DNA from: Candidatus Bathyarchaeia archaeon
Lineage (GTDB): Archaea; Thermoproteota; Bathyarchaeia; Bathyarchaeales; Bathycorpusculaceae
Direction: 5' to 3'
Length of the DNA stretch: 64,000 bases
Assembly (NCBI GenBank): GCA_038883775.1
Contig: JAVZLM010000003.1
Span: forward strand, 64,001 to 128,000
Position 1 is the stretch's first letter. Each line of letters starts with the position of its first letter. This document shows positions 3,490-25,533 of the stretch, one piece after another. The notes under the pieces were generated by a model, which worked only from the letters and a program-made list of their open reading frames with translations, did not search any database and had not been told where the DNA came from. A program made the position numbers and the translations under genes.

Positions 3490-4479
3490 ATGCCTGAATA
3501 TACCAAAAATATGCCTATCAAAATTATCACAGTTTCCTTATTATTGTCCTTTTTGACAATAACCTTAGGCTGCGCCCAACTCGAGCCACTAAAAATAACC
3601 ATCGCCACTGACAAATCTACTTATCAATATAGGGAAATTGTAAACATATATGGAAACGTGACGTATGAAGGCGCTCCCGTGGAAAGGGGGTTAGTAGCGA
3701 TCAGTATAAGATATCCAAATGGTACAATAATAAGCGTGAGAACCGTTCCTGCCAAAAGCATCCCCTCAACTACTTGGAATGTTGGAATAACATCTTTTAT
3801 ATCTTGTGATCAAAATGGAAATCCAAAAAAGGACTTTAGGCGAGACTCTTTTGCATATTTTTATATGATCGCAAAAAACAATATTCCTTTTAGCTATACT
3901 GTTTTGCTCACAATTTCAGTTTATGATGTTGATCAAACTCCAATAGGAATCCTATGGCAAGGACCGGTTTCCGTGCCAGGTAATTCCGAAATTGGTTGGC
4001 TTATTGGAGTTTTAATCCCCACATGGGCGTCCACAGGAACCGGAAGGGCATACGCCAATGTGTACACAGATTGGCCGGAAAAAGGTGGTTACCCATATTG
4101 TCCAGAGTGGAACACTACTTTTAACATTGAACGTCAAACATCAATCCCAAATATTCCAAGTACAAACAATACTTACCAAGTATCATTTCGATTGCCCCCC
4201 TATGTACCTAGAGGCACATACCTAATTAATGTAAGCGCCTGGTATTCTGGATGGAAAGCTTTCCAATACACTACTTTCACGGTCGATTATAGGCTATTGG
4301 GAGACGTTGCCGAACCTTGGGGAATTATTAACGTATATGATGTGGTGATGTTAACATCCATATACGGCTCAAAAAGTGGCGATCAAAACTGGAATCCTGA
4401 ACTAGACTTAAATTCAGATGGCAAAATAGACATTTATGATGTTGTGATAGTAACTTCACAATATGGAACAAGATATTAG
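3490..4479 (+). CDS. Secreted protein with C-terminal dockerin
   Basis: Signal peptide. C-terminus LLGDVAEPWGIINVYDVVMLTSIYG..NWNPELDLNSDGKIDIYDVVIVTSQYG is a duplicated Ca-loop+helix (type I dockerin pattern). Confidence 0.8.
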   Translation: MPEYTKNMPIKIITVSLLLSFLTITLGCAQLEPLKITIATDKSTYQYREIVNIYGNVTYEGAPVERGLVAISIRYPNGTIISVRTVPAKSIPSTTWNVGITSFISCDQNGNPKKDFRRDSFAYFYMIAKNNIPFSYTVLLTISVYDVDQTPIGILWQGPVSVPGNSEIGWLIGVLIPTWASTGTGRAYANVYTDWPEKGGYPYCPEWNTTFNIERQTSIPNIPSTNNTYQVSFRLPPYVPRGTYLINVSAWYSGWKAFQYTTFTVDYRLLGDVAEPWGIINVYDVVMLTSIYGSKSGDQNWNPELDLNSDGKIDIYDVVIVTSQYGTRY

Positions 4480-4559: not shown

Positions 4560-4642
4560 CCTTCCTTAGTGTTTGAATGGAATTTAATTCCAAAATCTTT
4601 ATACGGTATCGCGCTCGATATTGTTATGGGAGAGGGGGAAAT

Positions 4643-6562: not shown

Positions 6563-6683
6563 CCTAATTTTTTCCATGTTCTCAATTTTAGACTTTTTAT
6601 TTTCTTCCTTTAGGCTTAACTTAGTTAAAGATAGAAAAATTCAAATATTCATCGCTAAAATACATAGAGTCTGCGGTGAAAGA

Positions 6684-9600: not shown

Positions 9601-10649
9601 ACTTCCTTGTAAGTTTAATTGTAACAGATGAAGACTACGTGAATAGCTCCGCCTTTGTCGTCAGCATACATGTGGCTAGTTGGCCATCACCAGTAGCTAA
9701 CTTCACTTACTCGCCTACCATGCCAATAGAATGTGAAACTTTAATTTTCGATGCTTCTCTAAGCTATTCTCCAATGGGCGCTGAAATTGTCAGTTATGTT
9801 TGGGATTTTGGTGACGGTTCTCCAGTTGTTGTTGAATCGGATCCAATAACAACCCACGCATACGCATACGCGGGTTCGTATAAAGTCACCCTTACCGTAA
9901 AAGATCTATACAACAGTACCAACAGCATTTCGACTCACCTGCTTATCACTCGTGGTTTTGCAGCCCTAAACGTTGAAACAGATGTTGGCTCGATCTATTT
10001 TGTAGGAGAACTAGCAGAGTTCCGATTCCTAGTAAGCTTCCTGGGCGAACCTAGTAACGCAACGAAACTTAGCGCCAAGTTGTATGGGCCGAATAAACAA
10101 ATGATAGCAAAATACGTTTATCCAACCAATATCACTTTGTTCGCCACTGGAGTATACAGCATCACTTATGAAGTAGGTGCCGCTGCGGGGGTATACACAT
10201 TAGTTGTTGAGGTTGAATATTCTTCGCTCAAGGCAAGCGGACTTAAAAGTTTTCTAGTAAGCGCTACTCTAAACAATTGGGATGCCATAATAACGGACAT
10301 AAAAGATGAAATAGCGACCGTTGTTGTGCCAACCCTTGGAGAAATCAAGCTAAACTTGACTTCCATCAACGCAACATTATCTAATCTAATAGTTAATAGT
10401 AAAGGTGAAATCCTTGCAGAACTAGACACTGCATTAGGTTCGATAACCGCTAAGTTAAATACAATCAACACAGCCATAACTGCCATTGATGGCAACGTTG
10501 TAGACATCAAAACTTCTGTGGGCGACATACAAGCAACTCTCGGCGGGTTACAATCAACACTAACACTTGGTTTAGCAGCAACAGCGATACTCTCCATTAT
10601 AGCAGTATTATTAGCTGCTCTAATCTTGTTAACATTGAAAAAGAAATAA
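6684..10649 (+). CDS. Membrane-anchored scaffoldin-like protein: two cohesin-like domains, inserts, two PKD domains, coiled-coil stalk, C-terminal TM
   Basis: Paralogous to 239-3400. Two SYVWDFGDG PKD motifs, heptad-rich stalk, C-terminal TM plus KKK. Start taken at MMNNLW, ahead of the signal peptide. Confidence 0.78.
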   Translation: MMNNLWKKLSNCLWISLIISAMLLSNVHVMAGNEYSIQQAPTKVRVIPSPIEFKGGNATGQEFDVAVVVENVTNLYGIDINMTWDITYLEYVSHEFTMPVTDYPNPIPPSPYPGILNGPLITTIEDVNPTAGYIRVGKATMAQPPPPSFNGNGTVFVVKFRVKYHPQEADTVTYLHLASTDLAGKMPPGPLIIPHERQDGVVILRSYFEYPPMPLLDLRINGDKEYNAIRIGERFNVSVWLMGEGGVDLDPFWDISGFDFTVNFNSTLLEAVDVKIDPANWWLGFYPGGVQVFAESIDNTVGRVKIAFIGLPDPTQTPPHDPPNGKGVLAIVTFHVIYESETYPPPSAPIWLENPLPLALIDLYSENDLINLETPVSTDWHELTPTYCKHFNVTFWEDVDGDGRLSPNDQIHLLDKETGKWLPYRVHAVPVTMRVDILPFEYTDEYHEGTTIFTNTWPPYHALLSGLKLDPAYPVITWPPTYVPVNLTLSYAALDVSSVEVEFPNGTRRLLTENTEWEWFYGSDQLEIKIPLGVPKSCAFVEGVNMTTGWEGYVPKGRVILPDQTTGWIHRFVVTPVKDRIDLYVTIVDSAEFNVTRTYAIYLNETLIETGELTYLGEPIELYTVINDIDPGYYVLNFTLDSPDDKPWSVEIYGALFYSYEDEFYTEGNVTISSPLTVDFTADPPTLTVLPLGERGGYLWMNIDADGDGDAEPGWYWNMGYDYAPNNPVVAIAPTWTGTEPTDRFPLGTVVTIDYMAECTKMWVNYTAIEPTKWIKSAIGAADFPFTAPLTTEWKELMPYPDKQHVITGWTDTDGNHRLSIGDIIQLYDVETGETKPANITLLATGLTVIQKPVICLADTSDPFYGQVAIVDVAGFPHPERPMCPWHNKAYSVPIPHKTEPATYTAPTRGPIANFTYTPSEPVQFEEITFDASLSYSPANKTIVSYVWDFGDGSPVVVESDPITTHAYLSSGDFLVSLIVTDEDYVNSSAFVVSIHVASWPSPVANFTYSPTMPIECETLIFDASLSYSPMGAEIVSYVWDFGDGSPVVVESDPITTHAYAYAGSYKVTLTVKDLYNSTNSISTHLLITRGFAALNVETDVGSIYFVGELAEFRFLVSFLGEPSNATKLSAKLYGPNKQMIAKYVYPTNITLFATGVYSITYEVGAAAGVYTLVVEVEYSSLKASGLKSFLVSATLNNWDAIITDIKDEIATVVVPTLGEIKLNLTSINATLSNLIVNSKGEILAELDTALGSITAKLNTINTAITAIDGNVVDIKTSVGDIQATLGGLQSTLTLGLAATAILSIIAVLLAALILLTLKKK
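9509..9856 (+). repeat. 72-bp exact intragenic repeat (9509-9580 / 9785-9856) in PKD domains
   Basis: aattgtcagttatgtttgggattttggtgacggttctccagttgttgttgaatcggatccaataacaaccca occurs twice. Confidence 0.9.
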
Positions 10650-10753
10650 CCTTCAACACCCCACTTTTATTTTTCAATTTTTTAACTCTTAAATAAGAAA
10701 AGCTTAAAAATTAAGCTTCAACATAGTGGTAACACAAATTGCATGGTGAAAAC

Positions 10754-13700
10754 ATGATTAAAAATTGTTTAAAAACTTTCATATTTATTATGCTTCTGTT
10801 TAGCATAAATCTGGGAACCGTTAAAGATGTTTTTTCGGGCACCTCACCAAAAAGCGTTATAGATTATCCCATAGAATCCGTAGAGCATGAACTTATAGTA
10901 AATTGGATAACTCCACCTCAAGATCTTAATCTTAGAGAATCAACTATTATAAAAGTTAGCGTAACTAACAGCGGCTTAGAAAACGAGAGTGATGTGCAAT
11001 TATCTCTTTCAATTAACGATAGTATTGTTGCTTCCAAAACTTTTCCGTTGTTAATTGCAGGTTCTATGGGCACTTTGGAGTATGAATGGACTCCTGCTGT
11101 GGAGGGACAATACAATGTTACTGCTTATTCACTACCAGTAGTTAATGAAACAGACACAGCAAACAATGTTGTGTCTAAAATAGTTCAAGTTTGTCGTGTT
11201 GTTGTTTGTGTAGAACCAGAAACGGTCACGGCGAATGTAAACGAAACCTTCACTATTAACGTGAAAATTGCTAACGTTACGAGACTTTTTGGTTTCGACA
11301 TTCAATTCCGCTGGAGTCCAATAACTCTAAAATATGTCAGTCATAAGGTTAAAGTGCCAAAGGGTTCAACCTATCCTGACGGCATTCTTTACGGCTCTCC
11401 ATTAATAATTAAAAATATGGTGAACGAATCTGGAGTATCTGAGGCTTCTCCAGGAACTCTCTTTTGGCTCTCTGTTGTTTCTTTTGGCACTTCTTTGTCG
11501 TTTAATGGAACAGGAATAGCATTCAATATGACTTTTAAAGTATTGCAAAAAGGCGAATGTGACATATACTTTACATCCGTGGATCTTTCCGATAAGAAAG
11601 GAAAGTCGATTCCCCATGAAGTTAGAGACGGCTACTTTTACATGGAAGGATTAGGCTCTGTGCCCGTGGCTAACTTCACTTGTTGGCCGTCGAAGCGTGT
11701 GGATAGCGTAGATTGCGTTGTTGTTGGTAAGTCTGTTGTTTTTAATGCTTCTTTGAGTTATGATCCTGATGTGGGTGGCGGAATTACCTTGTACATGTGG
11801 GATTTTGGTGATGGAACACGTTTAAACACAACTGAATCCCTCATAAACCACACATATGCTGCAGAGAAAACTCGAAATCCTGTTTCCTTAACCGTTGTGG
11901 ATGTTGAGAATTCAACAAGTAGGCTGTTTTATCGGTTAATAGATATTGTTAACCCAAAGCCTGTGGCTAGATTCACGGTTTGGCCTCCTGATGGACACCC
12001 GGTTGTTGGTAAGTCTGTTGTTTTTAATGCTTCTTTGAGTTATGATCCTGATGTGGGTGGCGGAATTACCTTGTACATGTGGGATTTTGGTGATGGAACA
12101 CGTTTAAACACAACCGAACCCCTCATAAACCACACATATTTGGAAGTTACTGGTATAAGTGCACGTGTAGTGCGGTTAGTTGTCAAGGACGCTGAAAACC
12201 TTACAAGCGAACCGGCCACTTTCTCTTTGTATGTTATAGGCTCGCGTGACGTTAACGTAAAGAATGTTGAAGTATATCCAACCTTGGTTATGCCTGGAGA
12301 TGTTGTGGTTGTTAACGCTACCATAGCTAGTTTGGTAACACAATCAGCGTATAATTTTACAATGGGCTTTGATGTAAAGGTGTTTTGGACAGATTATAGT
12401 GAAATCATGCAAGGTGTGATTGATCAGAAAAAGGTTGAATTGGCCACAAACGTTAGCAAAATTTTTACTTTCTCTTGGAACACAACGGGCATGTCCGAAG
12501 GAGCTTATTGGGTTTGGGTTGAAGCCCTAAATGTTCCTCACGAAGATGATTTTACTAATAATATTTGGCGCAGTTCTGAGGCTGTTAATGTTACATTGAG
12601 AGAGGTTCACGATGTGGCGATTAAAGATTTAACCCTAGCTGTTAGTGTTGAAACAAAGGAATTTGCGCCGCCGGCGATTGTTGGAGAGAATGTAACTATG
12701 CGCGTTTATGTTATGGCAAATGGCACTGTTTCAGAGACTTTTAACGCCACTTTAAGAGTGATGGACTCGGAAGGTGAAGTTTTGTTTAGCAAAATTTGGC
12801 TTAATGAAGGTTTAGCAGCGCGAGAGACAAAGGAGTTAAAGTGCGTGTTTAACACGGAGGATGCGGCTGCTGGTAAGTATATAGTTTCTGTTAACGTCAC
12901 AATTGCGGAGGTGGATGAGCATCCTGATGATAACCTTAGAAGTGTGGAATTTAGAATTATTAGGTCTCCATTTTTATTAGTTGAACCCTTGCCGAGCCTC
13001 ATAGTTGTAGGAGATACCGTTGTTTTTAATGCTTCTGCCAGTTATCATTTAGACGGGGCTATTGTAGGGTATAGATGGGAGTTTTTTGACCCTAATGGAT
13101 TTCTTAGGCGTGTGGAAACAAGTAAAGCTGTTGTTAACTTTACATTCCCTGAGCAAGGTGGTGTTGGGGTATGGGTTATTAAGTTGATCGCGGAGGATAA
13201 TTATACAATAACTTACGGTGCTGATAGGCCCTTGACTGAGCCTTACCGCAAGGTTTTTGAGGTGAATGTTAAAGGAGCCAGTGTTATAGCTCTTCAGCTT
13301 AATCCAGCAACTATACAATATGGTCAATCCATCATTATAAATGGAACGTTAACGCCGCCCAGAGAAGGCGTGAATGTTACTGTTAGGGTTAATGGTACTG
13401 TTTTGGCTACAGTGTTAACTGGTGATATGGGCAACTTTACAATTACTTGGAAGCCAGACAAAGCTGGAACCTACCTAATCGAGGCATCTTGGCCTGGCGA
13501 TGCTGAAACGGCTCCTTCGGCAGATGAAAAAATCTTGATAGTTAGTAAAGCAGTGAGCAGTATAACTTTAAATGTTTCTCCTTCAACGGTTTCTGTTGGG
13601 GAAAATGTTATCATAAGCGGGGTTCTTTCTCCAGAGGAAATCGGAGCTCATGTGAATGTTACTGTTAGGGTTAATGGTACTGTTTTGGCTACAGTGTTAA

Positions 13701-13933
13701 CTGGTGATATGGGCAACTTTACAATTACTTGGAAGCCAGACAAAGCTGGAACCTACCTAATCGAGGCATCTTGGCCTGGCGACGCCAATTCTCTTCCATG
13801 CTCATCGGGACAGCGGCTTGTGAAGGTTGAAGCTCCACAGTTTAATGTTATGCCTTATGTTGCAGTTGCAATAGTAGCAATAATTGTTGTTGCATTAGCC
13901 GTATATCTTGTCAAGTTTAGAAAGAGAGGGTGA
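10754..13933 (+). CDS. Membrane-anchored surface protein: CARDB, cohesin-like, PKD and Ig-like domains, C-terminal TM
   Basis: Cohesin-like FTINVKIANVTRLFGFDIQFRW..FNGTGIAFNMTFKV..IPHEVRDGYF. YMWDFGDG x2. Duplicated Ig-like unit. TM plus KFRKRG. Confidence 0.78.
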   Translation: MIKNCLKTFIFIMLLFSINLGTVKDVFSGTSPKSVIDYPIESVEHELIVNWITPPQDLNLRESTIIKVSVTNSGLENESDVQLSLSINDSIVASKTFPLLIAGSMGTLEYEWTPAVEGQYNVTAYSLPVVNETDTANNVVSKIVQVCRVVVCVEPETVTANVNETFTINVKIANVTRLFGFDIQFRWSPITLKYVSHKVKVPKGSTYPDGILYGSPLIIKNMVNESGVSEASPGTLFWLSVVSFGTSLSFNGTGIAFNMTFKVLQKGECDIYFTSVDLSDKKGKSIPHEVRDGYFYMEGLGSVPVANFTCWPSKRVDSVDCVVVGKSVVFNASLSYDPDVGGGITLYMWDFGDGTRLNTTESLINHTYAAEKTRNPVSLTVVDVENSTSRLFYRLIDIVNPKPVARFTVWPPDGHPVVGKSVVFNASLSYDPDVGGGITLYMWDFGDGTRLNTTEPLINHTYLEVTGISARVVRLVVKDAENLTSEPATFSLYVIGSRDVNVKNVEVYPTLVMPGDVVVVNATIASLVTQSAYNFTMGFDVKVFWTDYSEIMQGVIDQKKVELATNVSKIFTFSWNTTGMSEGAYWVWVEALNVPHEDDFTNNIWRSSEAVNVTLREVHDVAIKDLTLAVSVETKEFAPPAIVGENVTMRVYVMANGTVSETFNATLRVMDSEGEVLFSKIWLNEGLAARETKELKCVFNTEDAAAGKYIVSVNVTIAEVDEHPDDNLRSVEFRIIRSPFLLVEPLPSLIVVGDTVVFNASASYHLDGAIVGYRWEFFDPNGFLRRVETSKAVVNFTFPEQGGVGVWVIKLIAEDNYTITYGADRPLTEPYRKVFEVNVKGASVIALQLNPATIQYGQSIIINGTLTPPREGVNVTVRVNGTVLATVLTGDMGNFTITWKPDKAGTYLIEASWPGDAETAPSADEKILIVSKAVSSITLNVSPSTVSVGENVIISGVLSPEEIGAHVNVTVRVNGTVLATVLTGDMGNFTITWKPDKAGTYLIEASWPGDANSLPCSSGQRLVKVEAPQFNVMPYVAVAIVAIIVVALAVYLVKFRKRG
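11720..12114 (+). repeat. 113-bp exact intragenic repeat (11720-11832 / 12002-12114), PKD core
   Basis: Identical DNA encoding VVGKSVVFNASLSYDPDVGGGITLYMWDFGDGTRLNTT. Confidence 0.9.
13370..13782 (+). repeat. 131-bp exact intragenic repeat (13370-13500 / 13652-13782), Ig-like domain
   Basis: Identical DNA encoding VNVTVRVNGTVLATVLTGDMGNFTITWKPDKAGTYLIEASWPGD. Confidence 0.9.
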
Positions 13934-14420: not shown

Positions 14421-14434
14421 AGAAAACCTTAAAT
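14421..14434 (+). promoter_or_regulatory. BRE-TATA promoter of the solute-binding protein gene
   Basis: agaaaaccttaaat. Near-identical aaaccttaaata at 16915-16926 and 20026-20037; related boxes at 181-194 and 10696-10710. Confidence 0.55.
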
Positions 14435-14480
14435 GGCAATTCGCGTTACAATAGTTTTTGAGAGAAAGGAGAAAGAGGTT

Positions 14481-16871
14481 ATGAATTCGAAAAAAGTTGC
14501 TTTGATGTTTGTATTGTCGCTGGTTCTCTTTGCTTCTTTAATGGTTCATTCGTCTCCTAGGAAGGTTGCATTGGCTGCCGAGGTTCAGAAGGGACCGCGG
14601 GCTCCAGAGTTTCAGATGATTCTTAAGGCTACGACTGAGGCTGCTTATGCCTCTTTGGTTGCTGGTGAACTTGAGTATATAGGCGGTTTGCTTCCAGCCC
14701 AATTTGAGGATGCTCAGAGGCGTCCCGAAATAACAACTTATCTCGAACTTATTTATAGCATGCAAGATGAAGCCATTATGAGCAACTATTCCATGCCCTC
14801 TCAGAAGTCTCATCCTAACGCTCCACCAGGCTCCAGCGGAATCCTCCGCAGTCCAACAAACGATGTGAACTTTAGGAAGGCTGTAAACCACCTGTTCAAC
14901 AAGGACTGGATCTGCGAAACCGTTTGGAAGGGGCTTGTTGAAAGAATTGATGTGCCAATTGCTGCCCCATCCAAGGGTTGGATGAACACAAGCTGCTTCA
15001 ACCTTTACCCATTCAGCTTTGAACAGGCAATAGCCAAACTCACGGACCCAGCCGTTTACGGAAGCGCTCAAAACGGCTGGTACGACTACGACGGAGACGG
15101 CATAAGAAACTATCCTCTTGACTGGCCGGGCGTTCAAGGCCAACCAGGCGTTAGAGACGAGCCAAACATGCTTCCACTTCAGTACTGGATTTACGACGAC
15201 CCACCGCAGAGATACGAGTTCGCCCACAACGTGGCAGAAAACCTAAGAAGCATAGGCATCCCAGTAGATGAGCACGTTGCACCCTTCCAGCTTATAAACG
15301 ACCAGTGCTTCTGCGCCTACGATTACCACCTAAGCTCAGACGGTTGGGCTGTGGGAAGGTTCCCAACATACATACAATTCTTCTTCGACAGTGAACTGTG
15401 GATTCCAGGATATTGTGGAGCCAACTGCTACACAGGTGGCAATGAGCCTTGGACTGCTGAGATAGACGAGGCTGTTAGGGCTGTAAGGTATGCTGCAACC
15501 CCAGAGGATAGCAGAGTAGCATGCCTTTACGCTCAGTGGCTGCTTGTGGACAAGTGGGCTGTTGGCATGATTCCGCTTTACACGCCTAAGGCTGCATACG
15601 CCGTTAGAAACGTTTTGGGCGCCGTCAAATTCTTCGGAGCATCGCCCTTCAACGAGTTAGCCATGATGAACATGTTCCGAATTGACGATCCAAACGCCCC
15701 AATAAGGATGGGATTCGACTTCCCACCAAACGTTAACACGATCTACTGCATGTGGGCTGTGGGCTACACAATAATGCAGATGACATGGGAATTCCCAATG
15801 CAGCTTAACCCATTAGACCCCATGTATGAGATGCCTTGGGGCGCCATAGACTGGGACGTAGGAACATGGGTTGATCCCGCTGACGGCAAAACAAAAACTG
15901 TCACCAAATGGTGGTTTAGGCCAGGAACCAAATACATAGCGCCGGTAACAGGAGAACCCTTAGACGACTTCACTGCGGCATCAAACATTTTCGGAATGTG
16001 GTACGTCTATCAGACGACAGATGCCTGGTGGTGGAGCGACTTCAGAGACCTCCACCACATAAGAGTAGACCCAACAAACCCATACTACTTCGAAATATAC
16101 TTCAACAGGTTCAGCTGCTGGTTCTACTTGGATACGCCCTATTCCACAAACTTGGGAATCTACCCGCCAGCCTACAAGGTTTATCCGCTATGCGACAACC
16201 CAGACCACACGTACACAAGCGGGCAACCAGTAGACCCAATAGTTAGAGTGTTCGTTGAAGGCGAAAATATGTCGACTCCAGGCGACTTGGCATTGCCATG
16301 GCAAACGAAATATGCGCCAGTAGAAATAGTCTCCATAGTACAGCAGGGCGTTGGCCCACTAAAGCCGTCAGACACAACGGGCAATTATGACTACGAAATG
16401 GTTAAGGGCAAAATCCACATATACAAAGACCTGCCAAACGGAGCAGTAATAACAGTCACATACTACGGCAGAGGAGAAGCCTACGGCACAACACCAGGAG
16501 ACATTCCATGGGACAAAATCTTCATAGGAGCAGGAAAATGGTACATGACCTACTTAGACCTACTGGCAGGCGCATACTTTAAGGCTAACAGAAACTACTG
16601 GGCTGAAACTCCGCCATTAGGCGAAACAGACTGGTACTACTGGAGAATTGAAGGACCCAAACCAAGAAAAGGCTACTTCCAAATCAACATATATGACGTG
16701 GTAGTAGCCACAGGCGCCTACGGAACCCAAGGCAGATACACCCCAGACCCAGCCTTCACAGTATCCGCAGACCTAGCCCCATCAGCCGACGGCCTAGGAG
16801 GCAAAATAGACATCTACGACGTAGTCACCATAACAGGAAGCTACGGAACCAAATTCTGGGAAATCAAATAA
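14481..16871 (+). CDS. oppA: Oligopeptide/dipeptide ABC transporter solute-binding protein (family 5) with C-terminal dockerin
   Basis: SBP5 motifs (PTNDVNFRKAVNHLFNKDWI; AENLRSIGIPV; IGAGKWY..ANRNYW). Directly upstream of oppBC. Ends in INIYDVVVATGAYG..ADLAP..GGKIDIYDVVTITGSYG. Confidence 0.85.
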   Translation: MNSKKVALMFVLSLVLFASLMVHSSPRKVALAAEVQKGPRAPEFQMILKATTEAAYASLVAGELEYIGGLLPAQFEDAQRRPEITTYLELIYSMQDEAIMSNYSMPSQKSHPNAPPGSSGILRSPTNDVNFRKAVNHLFNKDWICETVWKGLVERIDVPIAAPSKGWMNTSCFNLYPFSFEQAIAKLTDPAVYGSAQNGWYDYDGDGIRNYPLDWPGVQGQPGVRDEPNMLPLQYWIYDDPPQRYEFAHNVAENLRSIGIPVDEHVAPFQLINDQCFCAYDYHLSSDGWAVGRFPTYIQFFFDSELWIPGYCGANCYTGGNEPWTAEIDEAVRAVRYAATPEDSRVACLYAQWLLVDKWAVGMIPLYTPKAAYAVRNVLGAVKFFGASPFNELAMMNMFRIDDPNAPIRMGFDFPPNVNTIYCMWAVGYTIMQMTWEFPMQLNPLDPMYEMPWGAIDWDVGTWVDPADGKTKTVTKWWFRPGTKYIAPVTGEPLDDFTAASNIFGMWYVYQTTDAWWWSDFRDLHHIRVDPTNPYYFEIYFNRFSCWFYLDTPYSTNLGIYPPAYKVYPLCDNPDHTYTSGQPVDPIVRVFVEGENMSTPGDLALPWQTKYAPVEIVSIVQQGVGPLKPSDTTGNYDYEMVKGKIHIYKDLPNGAVITVTYYGRGEAYGTTPGDIPWDKIFIGAGKWYMTYLDLLAGAYFKANRNYWAETPPLGETDWYYWRIEGPKPRKGYFQINIYDVVVATGAYGTQGRYTPDPAFTVSADLAPSADGLGGKIDIYDVVTITGSYGTKFWEIK

Positions 16872-16958: not shown

Positions 16959-17951
16959 ATGGGCTTCAAAACCTACCTAGTTAAAAGGACCATATATAGC
17001 CTAGCACTTTTATGGGCTATAATGTCAGTAAACTTCATAATCTTCTCCCTTATACCAGGAGACCCAATCGGCAGATGGGTTAAAAACCAAGAGGCAGCCA
17101 TATCAAAAGAAGAAATAATGGAGTTAAGGCGAATCTACGGGCTGGATATGCCACTCCACGAAAGATACTTCTTGTATCTTCAAAACATGTTAACATGGAA
17201 CTTTGGAAGATCACGATACACACAAGCAGACATAAAAACAGACATAATGAATAGACTTGGAAACACCCTCTTACTCTTGGGAATAGCAGACGGCTTCACA
17301 ATATTTGCCGGAACATTGTTAGGCGTATTAGTTGCATACAAAAGAGGCTCAAAATTAGACACAGCATTAGTCACAGCCTCCCTAGGCACATACAGCCTAC
17401 CAGTCTTCTGGTTAGGATGGCTAATACTCTTCTTTTTCGCCATATACCTAAAATGGTTCCCAGTTGGGGGAATATACCCAGCCGAATGGATGAAACAGTG
17501 GCCCACAAGCATAGTAGAAATAATTGCTGGAAGACTGAAACACATAGTCCTCCCAGTTTTAACCCTTTTCATCTTTAACGTAGGCGGATGGCTACTATTA
17601 ACAAGGTCATGCGTACTCGAAGCCATAACCGAAGACTACGTAGTAACAGCAAGGGCAAAGGGATTAAGCACAAGAAAAGTCTTGTTAAACCACGTCTTAA
17701 GAGTTGCATCCCTACCAATCGTCACATCTCTAGCTTTAACATTAGCTGGACTTTGGAGCGGCGCAATTGTAACCGAAACCGTTTTCAGTTATGAGGGAAT
17801 GGGAAGGTGGATTTGGAGGGCCATCGGATTACAAGACATACCAATCATGTACGTTGTTTTCTACATATCCGCCCTCACAATAATCATTGCCAACTTCATG
17901 GCAGACCTCATTTATGGAGTATTAGATCCAAGAATAAGAGTCGGGGGATAA
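16959..17951 (+). CDS. oppB: Oligopeptide ABC transporter permease
   Basis: YGLDMPLHERY, DYVVTARAKGL EAA loop, ETVFSYEGMG, LDPRIR. Confidence 0.93.
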   Translation: MGFKTYLVKRTIYSLALLWAIMSVNFIIFSLIPGDPIGRWVKNQEAAISKEEIMELRRIYGLDMPLHERYFLYLQNMLTWNFGRSRYTQADIKTDIMNRLGNTLLLLGIADGFTIFAGTLLGVLVAYKRGSKLDTALVTASLGTYSLPVFWLGWLILFFFAIYLKWFPVGGIYPAEWMKQWPTSIVEIIAGRLKHIVLPVLTLFIFNVGGWLLLTRSCVLEAITEDYVVTARAKGLSTRKVLLNHVLRVASLPIVTSLALTLAGLWSGAIVTETVFSYEGMGRWIWRAIGLQDIPIMYVVFYISALTIIIANFMADLIYGVLDPRIRVGG

Positions 17952-17953
17952 AC

Positions 17954-19573
17954 ATGGCCACATACAAAGAGAGAGCAGCCTTCACACTTAAAAGACTAAA
18001 AAATTTCTGGAGGGATTTCTCCAGAAGCAAAAGAGGAGTCCTAGGAGTTGTCATCATACTATTCTACATTATAGTAGCCTTAATAGGTCCACTATTCATA
18101 ACAATTGACCCCCTCTTTCCAACAATGCCAGGATACTACCCAGCAGGCCCAGCTCCAATAGCTGATGTTCTATGCAAACCCACATGGTACAAGTACTTTC
18201 CAGGCAGAAGCGGCATGTCAGAAAACATGAAGTTAATATCAGATCACGAGTTCTCCTCAATCAAAGCAATGGAGGCTTGGGATCAAAAGACTAACGCTCC
18301 AAACTTAATAAGCTATGCATATAACCCAACAGCGGGATCCCACAACAACGACGGATGCATCGAAATATCCTATAACCGCCCAGCCGATTACACTAGCACT
18401 GAAACACCATACCTTCAAATAACCCACAACTTTACCTATCCATACCAGGAAAGCCCAAGAAAATTCTGGATACACCTCTCCTTCCTCCTCAACGGCACAA
18501 TAACAAGGGAAAGTTACGTGTCAATAGAAGTATCATTTTACAGAATTCAAACCCCCCCACCGCCATTAAATTATACGTACCCAAGTTCTCTAACAACGTA
18601 CATAGACTCATTAATAATTTACAAATACCCACTACATAGCATAAATACAACTAGTCCCTCCGCAACCTGGACTCACATGTGGATCACCTCAACCAGAGAC
18701 AGCATAATGTACGATCCAAAATACTACCTCAAACCATGCGCCATCATATTTCCAACATCAGGCAATTACACATTTGAAATTAAAGTAAGCTTTTACGACA
18801 CAGCAACCACTGAAAGAGAAATAAAAGTTTATCTCGACAATTTAGACGTGCTAATTTACGGAGAAGCCTACGGCATACTCGGAACAGACTATAAGACAGG
18901 AGGCCCAAGAGACAACCTAATATCCCTCGTATACGGCGCAAGAATCTCAATATTCGTCGGTTTACTCGCAACCTTTATCTCCGTCAGCCTCGGCTTACTC
19001 GTAGGATTAACAGCAGGATACGTTGGAGGATTAGGCGACGAAGCACTAATGAGACTTGCAGACTTCCTCATGTGCCTCCCAGGCTTGCCATTATATATTG
19101 TGCTGATGGTAGTCTTAGGAAGCTCCATATGGAACGTAATATTACTCATGTCCTTCCTTGGATGGATGGGTTTCTCACGCCAAATAAGATCCATGACCCT
19201 ATCATTACGCGAAAGAGCCTTCGTTGAAGCCGCCAAGGCCGCCGGAGCAGGCAAAGTCTGGATCCTATTTAAGCATATTCTCCCAAACGTCTTCGCGCTA
19301 GTTTACATAGCATTAGCAGTTTCAGTTCCAGGAGTTGTATTAACAGAAGCAACATTAAGTTGGCTCGGACTATTCGATCCAAAACAAATATCATGGGGAA
19401 GAATGCTTCACGAATTCTCCCAAGCAGGTGTTGCAGTTGCAAGAGGCATCGAAGATTACTGGTTCTGGGTGATTCCACCAGGCATAGCCATCGCCTTATT
19501 AGCGATAGCCTTCGTGTTGCTCGGCTACTCTTTAGATGAAATATTAAATCCCAAGCTTAGAGTAAGACGTTAA
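17954..19573 (+). CDS. oppC: Oligopeptide ABC transporter permease with a large extracellular insert
   Basis: LGTD..LVYGARISI, FVEAAKAAGA, HILPN, SWGRML, LDEILNPKLR. About 230 aa insert after TM1. Start at MATYKE. Confidence 0.9.
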   Translation: MATYKERAAFTLKRLKNFWRDFSRSKRGVLGVVIILFYIIVALIGPLFITIDPLFPTMPGYYPAGPAPIADVLCKPTWYKYFPGRSGMSENMKLISDHEFSSIKAMEAWDQKTNAPNLISYAYNPTAGSHNNDGCIEISYNRPADYTSTETPYLQITHNFTYPYQESPRKFWIHLSFLLNGTITRESYVSIEVSFYRIQTPPPPLNYTYPSSLTTYIDSLIIYKYPLHSINTTSPSATWTHMWITSTRDSIMYDPKYYLKPCAIIFPTSGNYTFEIKVSFYDTATTEREIKVYLDNLDVLIYGEAYGILGTDYKTGGPRDNLISLVYGARISIFVGLLATFISVSLGLLVGLTAGYVGGLGDEALMRLADFLMCLPGLPLYIVLMVVLGSSIWNVILLMSFLGWMGFSRQIRSMTLSLRERAFVEAAKAAGAGKVWILFKHILPNVFALVYIALAVSVPGVVLTEATLSWLGLFDPKQISWGRMLHEFSQAGVAVARGIEDYWFWVIPPGIAIALLAIAFVLLGYSLDEILNPKLRVRR

Positions 19574-19576
19574 ACC

Positions 19577-19957
19577 TTAACCTTTACTCAAAGAATCTAT
19601 TTTTTCATCTAAAAATCTCCAAAAATCATCCTCAATTTTTTCCAAAGCCTCTAAAGACTTCAAACCTTTCGATAAAAACCATCCACCGCCCAAAAATGAT
19701 GTCAACCAGCCAAACTTAACAAACGAACGAGAACGCCTTCCAGCCTCAAAAACCACCAAGAAATCATCAGGTTTCCCTCTAATAAAAACTTCAATGTGTT
19801 CGCATAAGTCATGAATGCGCCTAGGAGCTGCTGTAATCTTATACTCTTCCGATGAACACTGCATATTCGTCAAAAAACCCCTATGCTTAAAGAAACCCTC
19901 TAAAACTTCACACAGCAACTTTAAGTTAATATTTTTTCGAATCCACCGACTCTGCAT
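19577..19957 (-). CDS. Hypothetical protein
   Basis: 126-aa ORF filling the oppC-oppD gap on the opposite strand. GAGG upstream. Confidence 0.65.
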   Translation of the reverse strand: MQSRWIRKNINLKLLCEVLEGFFKHRGFLTNMQCSSEEYKITAAPRRIHDLCEHIEVFIRGKPDDFLVVFEAGRRSRSFVKFGWLTSFLGGGWFLSKGLKSLEALEKIEDDFWRFLDEKIDSLSKG

Positions 19958-20110
19958 GTTCCTCTAATTTGTAAATAAAGTTCTTACTAAAAAATTTTTG
20001 GAAAAGCTTTCCATCTATAATGGCTAAACCTTAAATAGCAATGCTTCCACTTAAAGCAAGATGGAAGGCAATCAGCTTTCAAACCTTGCAAGGGGAGGAA
20101 AACAAAAGAC

Positions 20111-21073
20111 ATGGAATTACTTAATGTCAACAACTTAAAAACTTACTTTTTCACACTGAGTGGTGCAGTGAAGGCTGTAGACGGCGTAAATTTTGTAATT
20201 GAAAAAGGAGAAGCAATGGGGTTAGCCGGAGAATCCGGTTGCGGAAAAACCACAGTAGCCCTATCGCTTTTAAGAATTCTTCCACCAGGAGGAAAAATTG
20301 TTGGCGGAAAAATCCTATTCAAAAACTTAAACATAGTCGACTTAGATGAAAGTGATCTGCGGAATAAGGTAAGATGGAAAGGAATTTCTTTAATATTCCA
20401 AGGAGCAATGAATGCGCTTAACCCCGTCCACAGGGTAAAGGACCAAATTATAGAAGCAATAAAGTTACACGAACCGCATGTAACAAAGGATGAAGCTAAA
20501 GAAAGAGTTTTAAAACTCTTTGAAATGGTAGGTTTAGATCCTTCAAGGGTTAACAGTTATCCTCATGAATTAAGTGGAGGAATGAAGCAGCGTGCCATGA
20601 TAGCAATGGCTCTAGCGTGCAACCCCGAACTTTTGATAGCGGATGAACCTTCAACAGCATTAGACGTTATAGTTCAAGCTCAAGTCCTCCAACTTATAAA
20701 GCATTTAAAAGAAAAACTACAGTTATCCATGATACTTATATCTCATGATCTGTCAATTGTTGCCGAAACATGCGATAAAGTGGCTATTATGTATGCGGGA
20801 AAAATAGTAGAATACGGAGATGTCAAAACACTTTTCGAGGAACCTCTACATCCATACGCACAAAGTTTGATAAAGGCCTTTCCACACATTAAAGAAGCTA
20901 AGACCCGCTTAATTTCTATACCAGGCGCTCCCCCAGATCTAATAAATCCTCCCACTGGTTGTCGATTCCACCCCAGATGCAGTTATAGTATGGAAATTTG
21001 TAAGAAAAAAGAACCGCCTATGATAAATGTTAAGGGTAACGCGCATTACGTAAGTTGTCACCTTATTGGTTAA
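20111..21073 (+). CDS. oppD: Oligopeptide ABC transporter ATPase
   Basis: GESGCGKT, YPHELSGGMKQR, IADEP, C-terminal GCRFHPRC..C..VSCHL. Confidence 0.95.
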   Translation: MELLNVNNLKTYFFTLSGAVKAVDGVNFVIEKGEAMGLAGESGCGKTTVALSLLRILPPGGKIVGGKILFKNLNIVDLDESDLRNKVRWKGISLIFQGAMNALNPVHRVKDQIIEAIKLHEPHVTKDEAKERVLKLFEMVGLDPSRVNSYPHELSGGMKQRAMIAMALACNPELLIADEPSTALDVIVQAQVLQLIKHLKEKLQLSMILISHDLSIVAETCDKVAIMYAGKIVEYGDVKTLFEEPLHPYAQSLIKAFPHIKEAKTRLISIPGAPPDLINPPTGCRFHPRCSYSMEICKKKEPPMINVKGNAHYVSCHLIG

Positions 21074-21093
21074 GTTGATGGAGAGATAACAAA

Positions 21094-22089
21094 ATGAGCG
21101 AAACAATAGTTAAAGTAGTAAATTTGAAAAAATGGTTTCCTGTAAAATTGGGTTTCTTTAAAACATTAGTTTCCCGCAAGCAACTTTATGTTCGCGCGGT
21201 AGACGGCATAAACTTAGAAATAAAAAAGGGAGAAATTTTTGGACTTGCAGGCGAAAGTGGGAGTGGAAAGACCACTACAGGACGGTTACTTGTTAAACTT
21301 ATTGAACCAACATCCGGACAAATTTTCTTTGGTGATAAAGATGTAACTAACCTTCCAGAAAGCCAATTTAAGCCTTTCCGTCAAAAAATACAAATAATTT
21401 TCCAAGATCCATATGAGTCGCTTAATCCTAGAATGACAATTTTTGACATTATAGCTGAACCTTTACGCCTTCAAGCTGGTTTAAGCGGATCTGAACTTGA
21501 TGAAAAAGTTTTCAAAGTCTTAACCGACGTAGGTTTAGTTCCGCCTCATGAGTTCATTTTTAGATTCCCCCACGAGTTAAGCGGAGGACAAAGGCAACGA
21601 GTGGCTACGGCGAGAGCTTTATCGCTGAGTCCAGATTTCATAGTTGCTGACGAACCAGTGTCAATGTTAGATGTATCTATCAGAGCAGAAGTTTTAAATT
21701 TAATGTTCGATTTAATGAAGAAGTACCATGTGTCTTTCCTTTACATCACACATGATTTAGCATTAGCTCGACACATCTGCGACGAAATAGCTATAATGTA
21801 TCTTGGTAAAATCATGGAAAAGGGACCTACAGAAAAAGTCATTTATGAACCTTTGCATCCCTACACAAAAGCCCTAATATCAGCTGTTCCTGTTCCTGAC
21901 CCATCATCAAAACGAGCGGAAATAGTGATAAAAGGAGAAATTCCAAGTCCAGTTAACCCACCCCCAGGCTGCAGATTCCACACAAGATGTCCAGAATACA
22001 TTGGCGACGTGTGTAGAACAAAAGAGCCAACGCTTATAAATGTGGGAAAGGCTCATTATGTTGCATGCCATTTATACTCTAAACCTTAA
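21094..22089 (+). CDS. oppF: Oligopeptide ABC transporter ATPase
   Basis: GESGSGKT, FQDPYESLNPR, LSGGQRQR, VADEPVSMLDVS, GCRFHTRC. Confidence 0.95.
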   Translation: MSETIVKVVNLKKWFPVKLGFFKTLVSRKQLYVRAVDGINLEIKKGEIFGLAGESGSGKTTTGRLLVKLIEPTSGQIFFGDKDVTNLPESQFKPFRQKIQIIFQDPYESLNPRMTIFDIIAEPLRLQAGLSGSELDEKVFKVLTDVGLVPPHEFIFRFPHELSGGQRQRVATARALSLSPDFIVADEPVSMLDVSIRAEVLNLMFDLMKKYHVSFLYITHDLALARHICDEIAIMYLGKIMEKGPTEKVIYEPLHPYTKALISAVPVPDPSSKRAEIVIKGEIPSPVNPPPGCRFHTRCPEYIGDVCRTKEPTLINVGKAHYVACHLYSKP

Positions 22090-22102
22090 AATCTTCAAAA
22101 TT

Positions 22103-22458: not shown

Positions 22459-25400
22459 ATGGAGATGAAGGAACTGAATATCAAGATAGCAATTTTAGTA
22501 ACGCTGCTAACTTTCCTGACATTAACATTAAATGGCATAAGCGTAATAGAGGGGCAATGCGTAAACCAGGCGTCGCTCGAATGGAATCAAAGAGACCTTG
22601 AACGGATTCTTGATCAACAAGACCGGTTGAAAAAAATTGCCTATGTGAAAAACGACCTTGTCAGGTTGGTGTTGGGAGTTGATGCTCAAGTTTCATATAG
22701 CTATTTTAAGCTGGAAAAAGTTGTTGCCGCTTATAGTGGGCGCATAGTTAATTTAATCTCGATGAACAGCGAAGTTAAAGCAGTAACTGTTGAAATTCCA
22801 ATAAAGCGCTCTTCGATTTTTATGAGTGAAATAACTGAAAAAAAGATGGCAAAGTTTATTGAGCCTAACTTTAAATTTCAATGTCAGTTTGTTCCAAATG
22901 ATCCTTATTGGACACTGCAGTGGGGACCGCAAAAAATAGAAGCTCCTTGGGCATGGAACATAACAGTAGGTGACCCCTCAGTTCTTGTGGCGGTTGTGGA
23001 TACTGGAATAGATTATTCCCATCCAGATCTAGCTGCTAACTATGTCGCCCTTGGCAGGGATTGGGTGAACGGTGACCCGGATCCCATGGATGATGAGGGA
23101 CATGGAACACATTGTGCAGGCATAATAGCCGCTGTATTAAATAACGGCATCGGCATCGCCGGGGTGGCTAAAATTAAAATAATGGCTGAGAAAGGTCTTG
23201 ATAGAACAGGATCCGGATACACAGATTGGCTTGCGAATGCCATCATTCACGCTGTAGAAAAAGGTGCCAAAATTATAAGCATGAGCTGGGGAGGATACTA
23301 CCACAGCAAACTAATTTATGAAGCAATTAAATATGCTTATGATTCTGGCGTGCTTTTAGTGGCGGCCGCAGGTAACGATCGAGTAAATGCAAAACTATTC
23401 CCTGCGGGTTATAATGAAGTTATAGCCGTTGCGGCAACAGACGATTACGATAATGTTGCTTCATGGTCCAACTTCGGCGATTGGATTGAATTGTCAGCGC
23501 CGGGAGTGCAGATTTATTCTACTTATCCAAGAAATAATTATGTGTATTTAAGTGGGACTTCGATGGCGGCGCCGCATGTAAGTGGTGTTGCAGCTTTAAT
23601 TTGGAGCCAATTTCCAGAAAAAAGCAGAGACTGGGTGAGGATACGTTTACGATACACTAGCGATGACATCAGTTTTCCAGGTTATGATATTCGTTCTGGT
23701 TATGGAAGAATTAACGCAAGAAAAGCTGTTGAGCAGCCTCTGTTAAATCATGATTTAGCCTTTTACGATTGGGAGTTTCCTCCTTATGTAGAACCAGGAA
23801 GCACGGCAACGGTTAATTTTACAGTGTTGAATTTTGGAGCGCAAAACGAATACGATGTAACTATACAGCTGTTAATAGAGGGAGCCCTCACAAACTTTAC
23901 CGTTATAAGCTTCATTGCTAATGGTACATCTGAAACAGCAAGTGTTAAATGGAACCCAGTTACAAAAGGAAATTATAACGTCACTTTATATTTGGTTCCC
24001 GTATCTGGCGAATTTTCCATCCAAAATAACAGAGTTACAAAATTTGTTTATGTAGATTTTCCAAGAAAAGCTTTGGTTCTAAGTTCAGAAGGGAATGTTT
24101 TAAGTTTTGTCACCCGCAATTGGGATGAGTTAAATGCGAAATGGTCTTCCTTTGGAGATAACATGATCTACATTGATTATACAACTTTAAACAAAGAAGA
24201 CATAACGTACGAAGAGATTGCAACTACAAACGCAGACGTTTTAATAATTTCGAGTGCATGGACTTCCGAGTATGGATGGGAATTTACAGATTCAGAAATA
24301 GACGCTATAAAGAGATACGTGCTTGAAGGACACGGATTAATAGTTACGGAAGCTACATTTTATCATCCAGTTCAAAACAATGTTAAGTTAGCTTCGCTGT
24401 TAGGGTTAAACGACTCGTTAATCTGGAATTATACAACAGCCACCTCTCTCAATCTGATAGAACCTAGCCATCCGCTTCTACGTGGAATCCCAAATCCCTA
24501 TTCTTTTCCGGAAGTAACAACTATGATTTCTTTAGACGGTTTATGGGATGACAATGAGTTAGAAGGCGGCAAATATATTGCGCTGGGAAGCAATAAGAAA
24601 ACTGCAATAGTTGTCTCTGAACGTGGCCGCGTTTATATTTCGCCTTATCTTGAAAGTATAGATCCATCAGCAAGTCAGAATCATCTAAAGTTACTTTACA
24701 ACGCCATTACATGGTCACCTCATGAACTTTCGGTATCATTGGATGCGCCAAATTATCATCCTTTAGGCGAATCATTGCTGCTTAATGCAACAGTTCATAA
24801 CATTGGATCCGTAAATGAAACAAATGTTCTTTTGCAATTGATTATTAATGGTTCAACAGTCTGTTCCGCAGTTATTGCAGAGTTAAAAAGCAATTCTTCT
24901 TATACGATAAGCTACTTATGGACGCCGGAAGAGGGCGAATACAATGTTACAGCTTATGCTGCTCCAGTAAAAGGCGAGACTTTTAAAATCAACAATACTG
25001 AAACGAAAATTGTCAAGATATCGCGTTTTCGTGATGTGGCGGTGTTTAACATTTCAGCTCCGAATGCGGCTTATAAAGGAAGTATTGTAAAAATCGAAGT
25101 TTTGGCAGGAAATTTGGGAGAACTCAGCGAAACCTTTAATGTTACCGTATACTGTGACTATACACTTATAGCCACGCTTCCTGTGGTAGACTTACTCCCA
25201 AAACAAAATATAACATTAACACTTTGGTGGAACACTTCAGCGTTAACACCTTGTCATACGTATAATATTTGGGCTGAAGCAACATCGGTTTCAGGTGAGG
25301 TTAACATAGAAAATAATGTTTTCATTGGGGTGCAAGTGAAGATTAAAATGCTTGGAGATGTAAATGGAGATGGTAACATTAACATTTACGATGTTGTGTT

Positions 25401-25533
25401 GGTCGCGTCAATTTATGGATGCAAAGAAGGAGATCCCAACTGGAATTCAGAAGCCGACTTGGCTCCACCATGGGGATTAATCAACATATATGACATTGTA
25501 GTAATAACCTCCGTATATGGGCAAAAATGTTAA
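22459..25533 (+). CDS. Secreted subtilisin (S8, thermitase-like) with CARDB domains and C-terminal dockerin
   Basis: Triad VAVVDTGID / HGTHCAG / GTSMAAPHVSG, oxyanion AAGND, propeptide, three CARDB-like units. Dockerin LGDVNGDGNINIYD..ADLAPPWGLINIYD. Confidence 0.92.
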   Translation: MEMKELNIKIAILVTLLTFLTLTLNGISVIEGQCVNQASLEWNQRDLERILDQQDRLKKIAYVKNDLVRLVLGVDAQVSYSYFKLEKVVAAYSGRIVNLISMNSEVKAVTVEIPIKRSSIFMSEITEKKMAKFIEPNFKFQCQFVPNDPYWTLQWGPQKIEAPWAWNITVGDPSVLVAVVDTGIDYSHPDLAANYVALGRDWVNGDPDPMDDEGHGTHCAGIIAAVLNNGIGIAGVAKIKIMAEKGLDRTGSGYTDWLANAIIHAVEKGAKIISMSWGGYYHSKLIYEAIKYAYDSGVLLVAAAGNDRVNAKLFPAGYNEVIAVAATDDYDNVASWSNFGDWIELSAPGVQIYSTYPRNNYVYLSGTSMAAPHVSGVAALIWSQFPEKSRDWVRIRLRYTSDDISFPGYDIRSGYGRINARKAVEQPLLNHDLAFYDWEFPPYVEPGSTATVNFTVLNFGAQNEYDVTIQLLIEGALTNFTVISFIANGTSETASVKWNPVTKGNYNVTLYLVPVSGEFSIQNNRVTKFVYVDFPRKALVLSSEGNVLSFVTRNWDELNAKWSSFGDNMIYIDYTTLNKEDITYEEIATTNADVLIISSAWTSEYGWEFTDSEIDAIKRYVLEGHGLIVTEATFYHPVQNNVKLASLLGLNDSLIWNYTTATSLNLIEPSHPLLRGIPNPYSFPEVTTMISLDGLWDDNELEGGKYIALGSNKKTAIVVSERGRVYISPYLESIDPSASQNHLKLLYNAITWSPHELSVSLDAPNYHPLGESLLLNATVHNIGSVNETNVLLQLIINGSTVCSAVIAELKSNSSYTISYLWTPEEGEYNVTAYAAPVKGETFKINNTETKIVKISRFRDVAVFNISAPNAAYKGSIVKIEVLAGNLGELSETFNVTVYCDYTLIATLPVVDLLPKQNITLTLWWNTSALTPCHTYNIWAEATSVSGEVNIENNVFIGVQVKIKMLGDVNGDGNINIYDVVLVASIYGCKEGDPNWNSEADLAPPWGLINIYDIVVITSVYGQKC

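Follow-up and report, generated by a model that had tools for sequence, protein, structure and literature searches.

In sediments, Bathyarchaeia rank among the most abundant of the uncultured archaea, and their role in protein degradation has been argued mainly from peptidase genes. The locus described here raises the question of how a secreted protease of such an archaeon, and the peptides it would release, might be kept at the cell's own surface. It lies in a stretch of 64,000 nucleotides (the window) from a Candidatus Bathyarchaeia archaeon (contig JAVZLM010000003.1, positions 64,001 to 128,000). The central gene starts with ATG and encodes P0003, a protein of 1024 amino acids (aa) with a peptidase domain of family S8 and a C-terminal dockerin. 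Genes for cohesin-bearing scaffold proteins and for an oligopeptide transporter lie upstream. The gene content predicts that this Bathyarchaeia-like archaeon probably forms a cellulosome-like assembly on its cell surface, serving proteolysis and the uptake of peptides.

P0003 consists of an S8 domain, a CARDB domain, a domain with the fold of ThuA and class I glutamine amidotransferases (GATases), two further CARDB domains and the dockerin (table 1). Pfam Peptidase_S8 (PF00082) was matched at residues 174-416 (E 9.5e-60, 202.8 bits against a cut-off of 21.8), and a phmmer search of Protein Data Bank (PDB) sequences returned thermitase (1thm_A, E 2.1e-72, residues 144-425), Ak.1 protease (E 8.7e-71) and Tk-subtilisin (E about 1e-51). 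The VVDTG, HGTHCAG, AAAGN and SGTSMA motifs matched thermitase residue for residue, which identified D181, H215 and S368 as the triad and N306 as the oxyanion residue. In a local alignment of 83 relatives with both S8 and the middle domain these four residues were kept in 78-79 sequences, the remainder being gaps, with no substitutions. By sequence the catalytic apparatus is complete, and proteolysis is predicted. An intact triad with its oxyanion Asn, as well as CARDB spacers, had been proposed in a preliminary description of the window, and both were borne out, the latter by three Pfam CARDB stretches over the gathering score (E 1.2e-26 on the whole protein). An NCBIfam scan of P0003 gave no model over its cut-off, the best being mycosin (205.8 bits against 278.75).

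The catalytic domain aligned end to end with the S8A enzymes thermitase, Ak.1 protease and Tk-subtilisin (structures 1thm, 1dbi and 2z2z), sharing their Asp/His/Ser order and their oxyanion Asn. Unlike these enzymes, P0003 carries about 600 residues past the catalytic domain (three CARDB domains, the ThuA-fold domain and the dockerin), and its propeptide is not recognisable from sequence. Hydrophobic 19-mers covered residues 6-30 on the Kyte-Doolittle scale, and a signal peptide was presumed. The following 110 aa were kept in relatives (phmmer E down to 3e-13). Since a Pfam scan of this piece gave no family at E<=1, the I9-like nature of the presumed propeptide is one that we infer. Taken as a whole, P0003 would probably be an exported, thermitase-type subtilase. 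Among the 119 relatives listed, 82 had S8 together with the middle domain and 55 of these 82 ended in a dockerin; this ending was present in 11 of 12 forms about 1000 aa long.

The C-terminal module of P0003 was identified as a dockerin by fold and sequence. A phmmer search with a 70-aa piece matched the Cel48 dockerin 2y3n_B over residues 8-68 (E 2.4e-9), and the other PDB matches at E<1 were all cellulosomal dockerin modules, including 5k39_B (4.8e-4) and 2b59_B (9e-4). The AlphaFold2 model, built from an alignment of 36 sequences, had a mean predicted local distance difference test score (pLDDT) of 90.8 and helices at 22-30 and 56-64. In a Foldseek search with this model the listed ranks 1-26 were all dockerin chains, those of type II being best (5k39_B, E 7e-4; 2y3n_B, template modelling (TM) score 0.74/0.85 and root mean square deviation (rmsd) 1.2 Å). 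The fold agreed at an rmsd of 1.2-1.5 Å with that of the Cel48 dockerin in complex 2y3n, which is of type II, and with the X-module-dockerins (X-Doc) 5k39, 5m0y and 2b59 of the same type. P0003 shares with these proteins two loop-helix repeats and a beta-sandwich module directly N-terminal to them; it differs in that this module is a CARDB domain instead of an X module, and also in its archaeal host and peptidase cargo.

The first repeat has a canonical 12-residue calcium loop (DVNGDGNINIYD) and the second a 13-residue loop (DLAPPWGLINIYD). The four Asp residues at the loop starts and ends were invariant over the 36 aligned sequences. Owing to this asymmetry the P0003 dockerin probably has a single binding orientation. 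There is no linker between CARDB 3 and the dockerin (consensus ..VKIKMLGDxNGDG), and the top fold matches were X-Doc chains; by analogy, this CARDB domain may have the role that the X module has in type II X-dockerins.

All genes from 215 to 29252 are on the + strand. Eight cohesins were detected in four ORFs (open reading frames) of the window, within 22 kb and on one strand, together with four dockerins. The window has cohesin scaffold proteins, two of them (ORF6546 and ORF10739) with a C-terminal hydrophobic anchor, and several dockerin components. A dockerin hidden Markov model (HMM) built from the 36-sequence alignment found exactly four ORFs with a dockerin in the window, and this gene block contains all of them; on ORFs outside the model building it gave E 1.9e-23 for the 329-aa protein P0002 and E 1.1e-11 for an OppA-like solute-binding protein, the next best ORF having E 2.7. 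The preliminary description had called P0003 the catalytic cargo of the scaffold. A dockerin-bearing peptidase it is, but the definite article was too narrow, as the OppA-like protein and P0002 also carry dockerins. The dockerin-borne parts in the window are therefore a peptidase, a binding protein, cohesins and a domain without family match, and no glycoside-hydrolase domain was found by Pfam on any dockerin ORF of the window. As read from these genes, the assembly would work like a cellulosome but is not one, its cargo being without a carbohydrate-active enzyme.

The OppA-like protein would provide the link to peptide uptake. Its tail aligned with the P0003 dockerin (BLASTP, 47% over 58 aa, E 2e-12), although Pfam gave no dockerin there and both calcium loops are degenerate. 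The module was present in 14 of 14 OppA-like relatives among the matches listed (29-100% identity; P0270 is the same protein with another start). The Opp/Dpp transporter genes lie between the scaffold genes and P0003, and in another genome (locus L008) the order OppB-C-D-F, dockerin-tagged OppA and S8 plus middle-domain protease is repeated.

The following sequence of events can be proposed. The leader would direct export of P0003, and the 110-aa N-terminal extension, as a subtilisin-type propeptide, would be removed. With calcium, the dockerin would then bind at least one of the eight cohesins on the four upstream scaffold proteins. As two of the scaffold proteins end in a membrane anchor, P0003 would be held at the cell surface, and a related dockerin on the OppA-like protein would bring protease and peptide receptor together. 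Peptides cut from environmental protein would be captured and imported through the products of the OppBCDF genes. A more detailed version, which we put forward tentatively and regard as possible, not as probable, is that the block 215-25533 encodes a surface "proteolysome". In it, anchored and adaptor scaffoldins with eight cohesins would assemble the subtilase and the Opp peptide-binding protein through asymmetric dockerins with a single canonical calcium loop, physically coupling proteolysis to peptide capture; the loop order (P0003 and P0001 against the reversed P0002) would determine which cohesin is chosen or in which orientation it is bound, and CARDB would act as an X module.

Table 1. 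Features of the docking locus, with positions in the window and residues of the encoded proteins.
Feature	Position	Strand	Basis
Scaffoldin-like ORF215, 2 cohesins (about 416-844 and 887-1261), no C-terminal anchor	215..3400	+	Pfam, iterated search, hydrophobicity
P0002, 329 aa, N-terminal domain without family match, dockerin with reversed repeats	3490..4479	+	Family HMM (E 1.9e-23), loop classes
P0001, adaptor scaffoldin, 3 cohesins (residues 60-212, 213-350 and 351-490), then CARDB and dockerin	4577..6562	+	Pfam Cohesin (E 1.7e-21, 3 stretches), local iterated search, tail identity
Scaffoldin-like ORF6546, 2 cohesins (about 6816-7286 and 7365-7709), 2 PKD, C-terminal hydrophobic anchor (10554-10646)	6546..10649	+	Pfam, iterated search, hydrophobicity
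ORF10739, CARDB, 1 cohesin (about 11198-11638), PKD/Ig (immunoglobulin) repeats, C-terminal hydrophobic anchor (13832-13924)	10739..13933	+	Pfam, iterated search, hydrophobicity
OppA-like solute-binding protein, 812 aa, cryptic C-terminal dockerin-like module (residues about 750-807; 16680-16853)	14433..16871	+	Pfam SBP_bac_5, BLASTP, family HMM
Opp/Dpp-type ATP-binding cassette (ABC) transporter: permeases (16959-17951, 17807-19573), ATPases (20111-21073, 21094-22089)	16959..22089	+	Pfam BPD_transp_1, OppC_N, ABC_tran, oligo_HPY
P0003, whole gene, predicted secreted S8 peptidase with C-terminal dockerin	22459..25533	+	ORF list, Pfam, relatives
P0003 hydrophobic N-terminal leader, presumed signal peptide (residues 1-33)	22459..22557	+	Kyte-Doolittle scan
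P0003 presumed propeptide (residues 34-143)	22558..22887	+	Between leader and residue aligned to mature thermitase residue 1
P0003 S8 catalytic domain (residues 144-426), D181, H215, S368, oxyanion N306	22888..23736	+	Pfam, phmmer against PDB, alignment of relatives
P0003 CARDB 1 (residues about 430-528)	23746..24042	+	Pfam (E 4e-11, 43.5 bits, cut-off 22.7)
P0003 ThuA-like domain, class I GATase fold, no Cys (residues 529-752)	24043..24714	+	AlphaFold2, Foldseek
P0003 CARDB 2 (residues about 753-853)	24715..25017	+	Pfam (E 1.5e-10, 41.6 bits, cut-off 22.7)
P0003 CARDB 3, first half of CARDB-dockerin cassette (residues 854-962)	25018..25344	+	Pfam (E 7.8e-07, 29.7 bits, cut-off 22.7)
P0003 dockerin (residues 963-1024)	25345..25530	+	2y3n_B match, AlphaFold2, Foldseek, loop classes

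Docking itself was addressed by complex prediction for one of the eight locus cohesins, cohesin 1 of P0001, with the P0003 dockerin and two calcium ions. The interface score ipSAE was 0.36, 0.34 and 0.32 in the three runs (median 0.34) against 0.02 for the best of three controls, with at least 98% contact agreement and a pLDDT of at least 83 for the partner. In the calibration, 58 of 80 solved complexes and 2 of 110 mismatched pairs attained the mark; both of these mismatches, but only 7 of the 80 solved complexes, did so with a score no higher than 0.60. These counts apply only roughly to the P0001/P0003 pair, because custom alignments and riding calcium ions were used for it. By this modelling, docking of the P0003 dockerin on the locus scaffold is weakly supported.

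Several observations weigh against a docked protease coupled to peptide uptake. The complex prediction is weak by the calibration of its score and covers one of eight cohesins, and as cohesin-dockerin complexes have already been solved, the pass may stem from likeness to known structures. In the second repeat of the P0003 dockerin the position-3 and position-5 calcium ligands are missing, so that it has two ligands fewer than cellulosomal dockerins, and its calcium dependence and affinity may differ from those of textbook dockerins. Pfam Dockerin_1 stayed under its gathering score of 22.9 bits (17.3 bits for the whole protein, 21.5 for the excised last 67 aa), and the dockerin call for P0003 consequently rests on the other tests. 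A gap of 369 bp (22090-22458) separates the transporter ATPase gene from P0003, with an AT-rich stretch before the ATG, which makes co-transcription with the transporter unlikely and suggests that the P0003 gene has its own promoter. Linkage was counted in 10-kb neighbourhoods of 29 S8 plus middle-domain ORFs in other genomes: only nine have a recognisable dockerin end, at least two Opp genes were found near only four, and a cohesin ORF near only three, while another dockerin ORF was nearby in ten. Lastly, extracellular peptidase genes in archaeal metagenome-assembled genomes (MAGs) are described as a poor predictor of protein catabolism in PMC9123169.

The strongest of the alternatives is that the dockerin is real and its partner lies outside the locus, as a cohesin of neighbouring cells or one encoded by another part of the genome; the protease would then be freely exchanged or intercellular and not the cargo of the upstream scaffold. 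The linkage counts for cohesin and dockerin ORFs fit this idea, as does the weak score of the single cohesin modelled (0.34 against 0.02); moreover, the P0001 dockerin is nearly of the same type as that of P0003, so that a third protein may be the docking partner of both P0001 and P0003. The clustering of eight cohesins within 22 kb on the same strand argues against it, and so does the finding that the four dockerins detected in the window by the family-specific model are all in this block. Cohesin and dockerin genes also cluster about P0003 orthologues in L001, L004, L019 and L020. We consider an outside partner unlikely.

The second alternative concerns the middle domain of P0003, for which the preliminary description had suggested a class I GATase-like alpha/beta fold between the spacers. 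The AlphaFold2 model, from an alignment of 22 sequences, supported that fold (pLDDT 94.7, predicted TM score 0.92). Foldseek against the PDB gave the ThuA-like proteins 4jqs_A and 1t0b as best matches (E about 3e-8, TM 0.63), followed by STM3548 and many class I GATases, among them TrpG (1qdl_B, E 3.9e-7) and GATase domains of GMP synthetases; over the ThuA-like proteins (1t0b, 4jqs) and class I GATases together the matches ranged from E 3e-8 to 1e-5 and TM 0.5-0.63. The sole PDB sequence match was ThuA-like 1t0b_A (E 0.019), with LEG.GLIV and P.HP...GI in common. Pfam matches to LBP_M, IFT52_GIFT, ThuA and DUF4159 were all under their cut-offs (ThuA, PF06283, 17.8 bits against 33.4), and a protein-atlas look-up offered DUF4960 (0.95), MJECL34 (0.94), LBP_M (0.90) and ThuA (0.89), which are leads only. 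Inspection of residues 529-752 revealed no cysteine, and hence no Cys-His-Glu triad; a GATase enzyme role was rejected for this reason, and the domain would not be a GATase of the usual kind. It differs from the ThuA-like proteins and class I GATases also in its setting between CARDB domains of an extracellular protease.

Five polar residues of this domain were nearly invariant in the 83 relatives, i.e. S598 (80/83), E613 (82/83), H625 (82/83), H671 (80/83) and E732 (81/83). H671 belongs to an SHP motif aligned to the GHP of 1t0b. These residues could bind a ligand or a metal. When one genome per species was scanned, the domain was located in 53 loci, none of them from the genome of the window, first in Bathyarchaeia (40-58% identity, 58% being the highest) and then in Thermoplasmata, Methanosarcinales, several DPANN lineages and a few bacterial bins; S8 was in the same ORF in 29 of the 53 loci and absent from it in 24. 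The conserved residues, the SHP motif and the spread over several archaeal phyla, partly apart from S8, would suit a second active or ligand-binding site (e.g. for a metal or a glycan) in a bifunctional protein, a reading that is compatible with docking. With the nucleophile of GATases lacking and every Pfam match under its cut-off, this reading appears quite unlikely.

A third alternative is that P0003 serves in maturation or turnover of the cell envelope, acting on scaffoldins, the S-layer or other surface proteins instead of on nutrients. The gene does sit among large surface proteins, and cell-wall rearrangement is listed among alternative roles of archaeal extracellular peptidases in PMC9123169. 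However, it adjoins a peptide ABC transporter with a dockerin-tagged binding protein, an arrangement which recurs in L008, and its catalytic domain is nearest to thermitase-type subtilisins of broad specificity, which makes an envelope function improbable. Finally, a degenerate dockerin-like module for calcium binding or stability, without cohesin partner and on a simply secreted protease, would agree with the Dockerin_1 score under the Pfam cut-off and the replacement of one of the two calcium loops, but is highly improbable given that the four loop-end Asp are invariant, that the 13-residue loop is itself conserved (19 of 25 members of a well-supported clade), that the module co-occurs with cohesin genes and that its structure and sequence match functional dockerins.

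That clade was obtained from a study of the CARDB-dockerin unit with which P0003 ends. The preliminary description had noted that this tail parallels that of P0001, and the alignment confirmed it: residues 854-1024 of P0003 and 489-661 of P0001 are identical at 94 of 173 positions (54%, E 2e-47), with PCHTYNIWAEA and PCNNYTIRAEA present, and the two dockerins alone are 61% identical. The 171-aa tail of P0003 was searched exhaustively against 1.84 billion cluster representatives, which gave 7748 matches at E<=1e-3, 2982 at E<=1e-10 and 185 at E<=1e-30. Among the best 150 of these 185 matches, 112 had the whole unit ending within 12 aa of the C-terminus, in proteins of 162-2760 aa. Of these 112 representatives 75 had two canonical loops, 18 the P0003 pattern and one the long loop twice. 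Pfam was run on 72 of the 112 proteins (under a size limit, with P0004 left out) and found cohesins in 25, Peptidase_S8 in seven, Peptidase_C13 in one, and also PKD, Flg_new_2 and other domains; Dockerin_1 was detected at E<=1e-5 and above the gathering score in 30.

A tree was calculated from 157 whole cassettes, whose cargo was assigned by local phmmer to S8 (40), cohesin (68) or other (49). The tree required 41 changes of cargo label, compared with 71.1 for shuffled labels, and none of 200 shuffles was that low. The S8 label alone required 21 changes (bootstrap range 20-22), and at least 13 of these changes were forced by well-supported branches. The contrast between S8 and cohesin is the firmer part of this tree, because the label "other" includes fragments. 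The P0003 cassette grouped in well-supported clades with S8 orthologues of about 1000 aa and was 81% identical to that of P0004, against 54% for P0001. The P0003 and P0001 cassettes share a well-supported clade of 31 rows; with midpoint rooting their common clade has 25 rows (S8 15, cohesin 9, other 1), and the 13-residue loop occurred in 19 of these 25 as opposed to 12 of the 132 outside. In a catalytic-domain tree of the 40 S8 rows, 12 of those 15 S8 rows formed a well-supported clade, and holding all 15 together, as in the cassette tree, was rejected (approximately unbiased test, p-AU 0.012). The label changes and the conflict with the S8 tree indicate that in the course of evolution the cassette has passed from one cargo type to another and from one S8 lineage to another. 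The cassette had been described as portable, and this stands in so far as it recurs on S8, C13, cohesin, PKD and other cargo; a recent local copy is not part of it. A recent duplication between P0001 and P0003 was rejected, as the P0003 cassette sits with its own S8 orthologues. By sequence comparison, the likeness of the two tails is that of a common dockerin subtype.

It was also found that in other Bathyarchaeia a cohesin can lie inside the same polypeptide as the protease homolog (L002, 8288-14719; L020, 3-4631; L024, 474-5456). The 5' end of the L020 homolog is cut, and S8 was not seen there. In L002 and L020 the cohesin stands ahead of the CARDB-dockerin cassette, so that the enzyme could be cargo and scaffold at once.

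Cohesin and dockerin proteins are known from other archaea. According to PMC9012536, anaerobic methanotrophic (ANME) archaea have scaffoldin-like proteins that combine several cohesins with a dockerin, as well as OppA/NikA-type binding proteins carrying dockerins, and the domain tables list dockerin/cohesin proteins also with Subtilase (PF00082) or CARDB domains. Multi-cohesin scaffoldins and a dockerin-tagged OppA type are common to those systems and the present locus. The locus differs in that its nearest relatives are in Bathyarchaeia and that scaffoldins, protease, tagged OppA and the permease and ATPase genes lie in one 25-kb block. A 2008 survey of prokaryotic serine proteases (PMC2605481) reported Subt-(Dockerin_1)2 (Halobacterium NP_280653.1), Sub_N-Subt-PA-Dockerin and Subt-(CARDB)9; among these listed architectures none joins S8, CARDB, a ThuA-fold domain and a dockerin as P0003 does. 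Extracellular S8A peptidases are widespread in archaeal MAGs according to PMC9123169. Thus S8-dockerin proteins and archaeal cohesin/dockerin systems are already known, and every part of P0003 is of a known kind. An earlier account of a bathyarchaeial dockerin protease was not found in the literature searched, a search of limited reach.

From the sequences, it is plausible that protease and peptide receptor are co-docked beside the transporter through asymmetric dockerins. Such a docking-tagged protease and oligopeptide receptor, with anchored scaffoldins and a transporter, offers a concrete hypothesis for how an extracellular enzyme and its products could be kept at the cell's own surface, and the locus would extend the cohesin-dockerin principle past polysaccharide degradation. 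The recurrent 13-residue loop and the cryptic dockerins missed by Pfam suggest that profile-based censuses undercount archaeal dockerins.

Some features of the neighboring genes may be added. The ORF of P0001 starts mechanically at 4577, with an internal ATG at 4643, the position used in the preliminary description; the latter directly precedes the hydrophobic leader and is the more plausible start. In P0002 the leader ends in an LGC lipobox-like motif, and the dockerin has the 13-residue loop first and the canonical loop second, i.e. the opposite order to P0003 and P0001. The N-terminal 240 aa of P0002 had no family match, and in the protein-atlas look-up no entry reached 0.9.

ORF215 and ORF6546 share long DNA stretches of 81-96% identity (933-2541 against 7378-9301; 96% for 933-1108 against 7378-7553) and appear to be paralogous scaffoldin genes, the former without and the latter with a membrane anchor. 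Near-identical (99%) tandem copies of PKD/Ig-type coding sequence were present in ORF10739 and ORF6546 (11720-12139, 13370-13785 and 9509-9863). The gene directly downstream of P0003 (25626-29252, + strand) specifies a surface protein of 1208 aa, in which CBM96/DNRLRE, PKD and Ig domains occur together with seven Flg_new_2 repeats and a hydrophobic anchor at the C-terminus; neither a cohesin nor a dockerin was detected in it.

A tRNA scan of the window gave none. In most archaea the largest subunit of RNA polymerase is split into A' and A''. In the window it is encoded by one ORF of 1273 aa (45862-49683, Rpb1 domains 1-5), which adjoins the gene for an unsplit Rpb2-type subunit (42486-45860).

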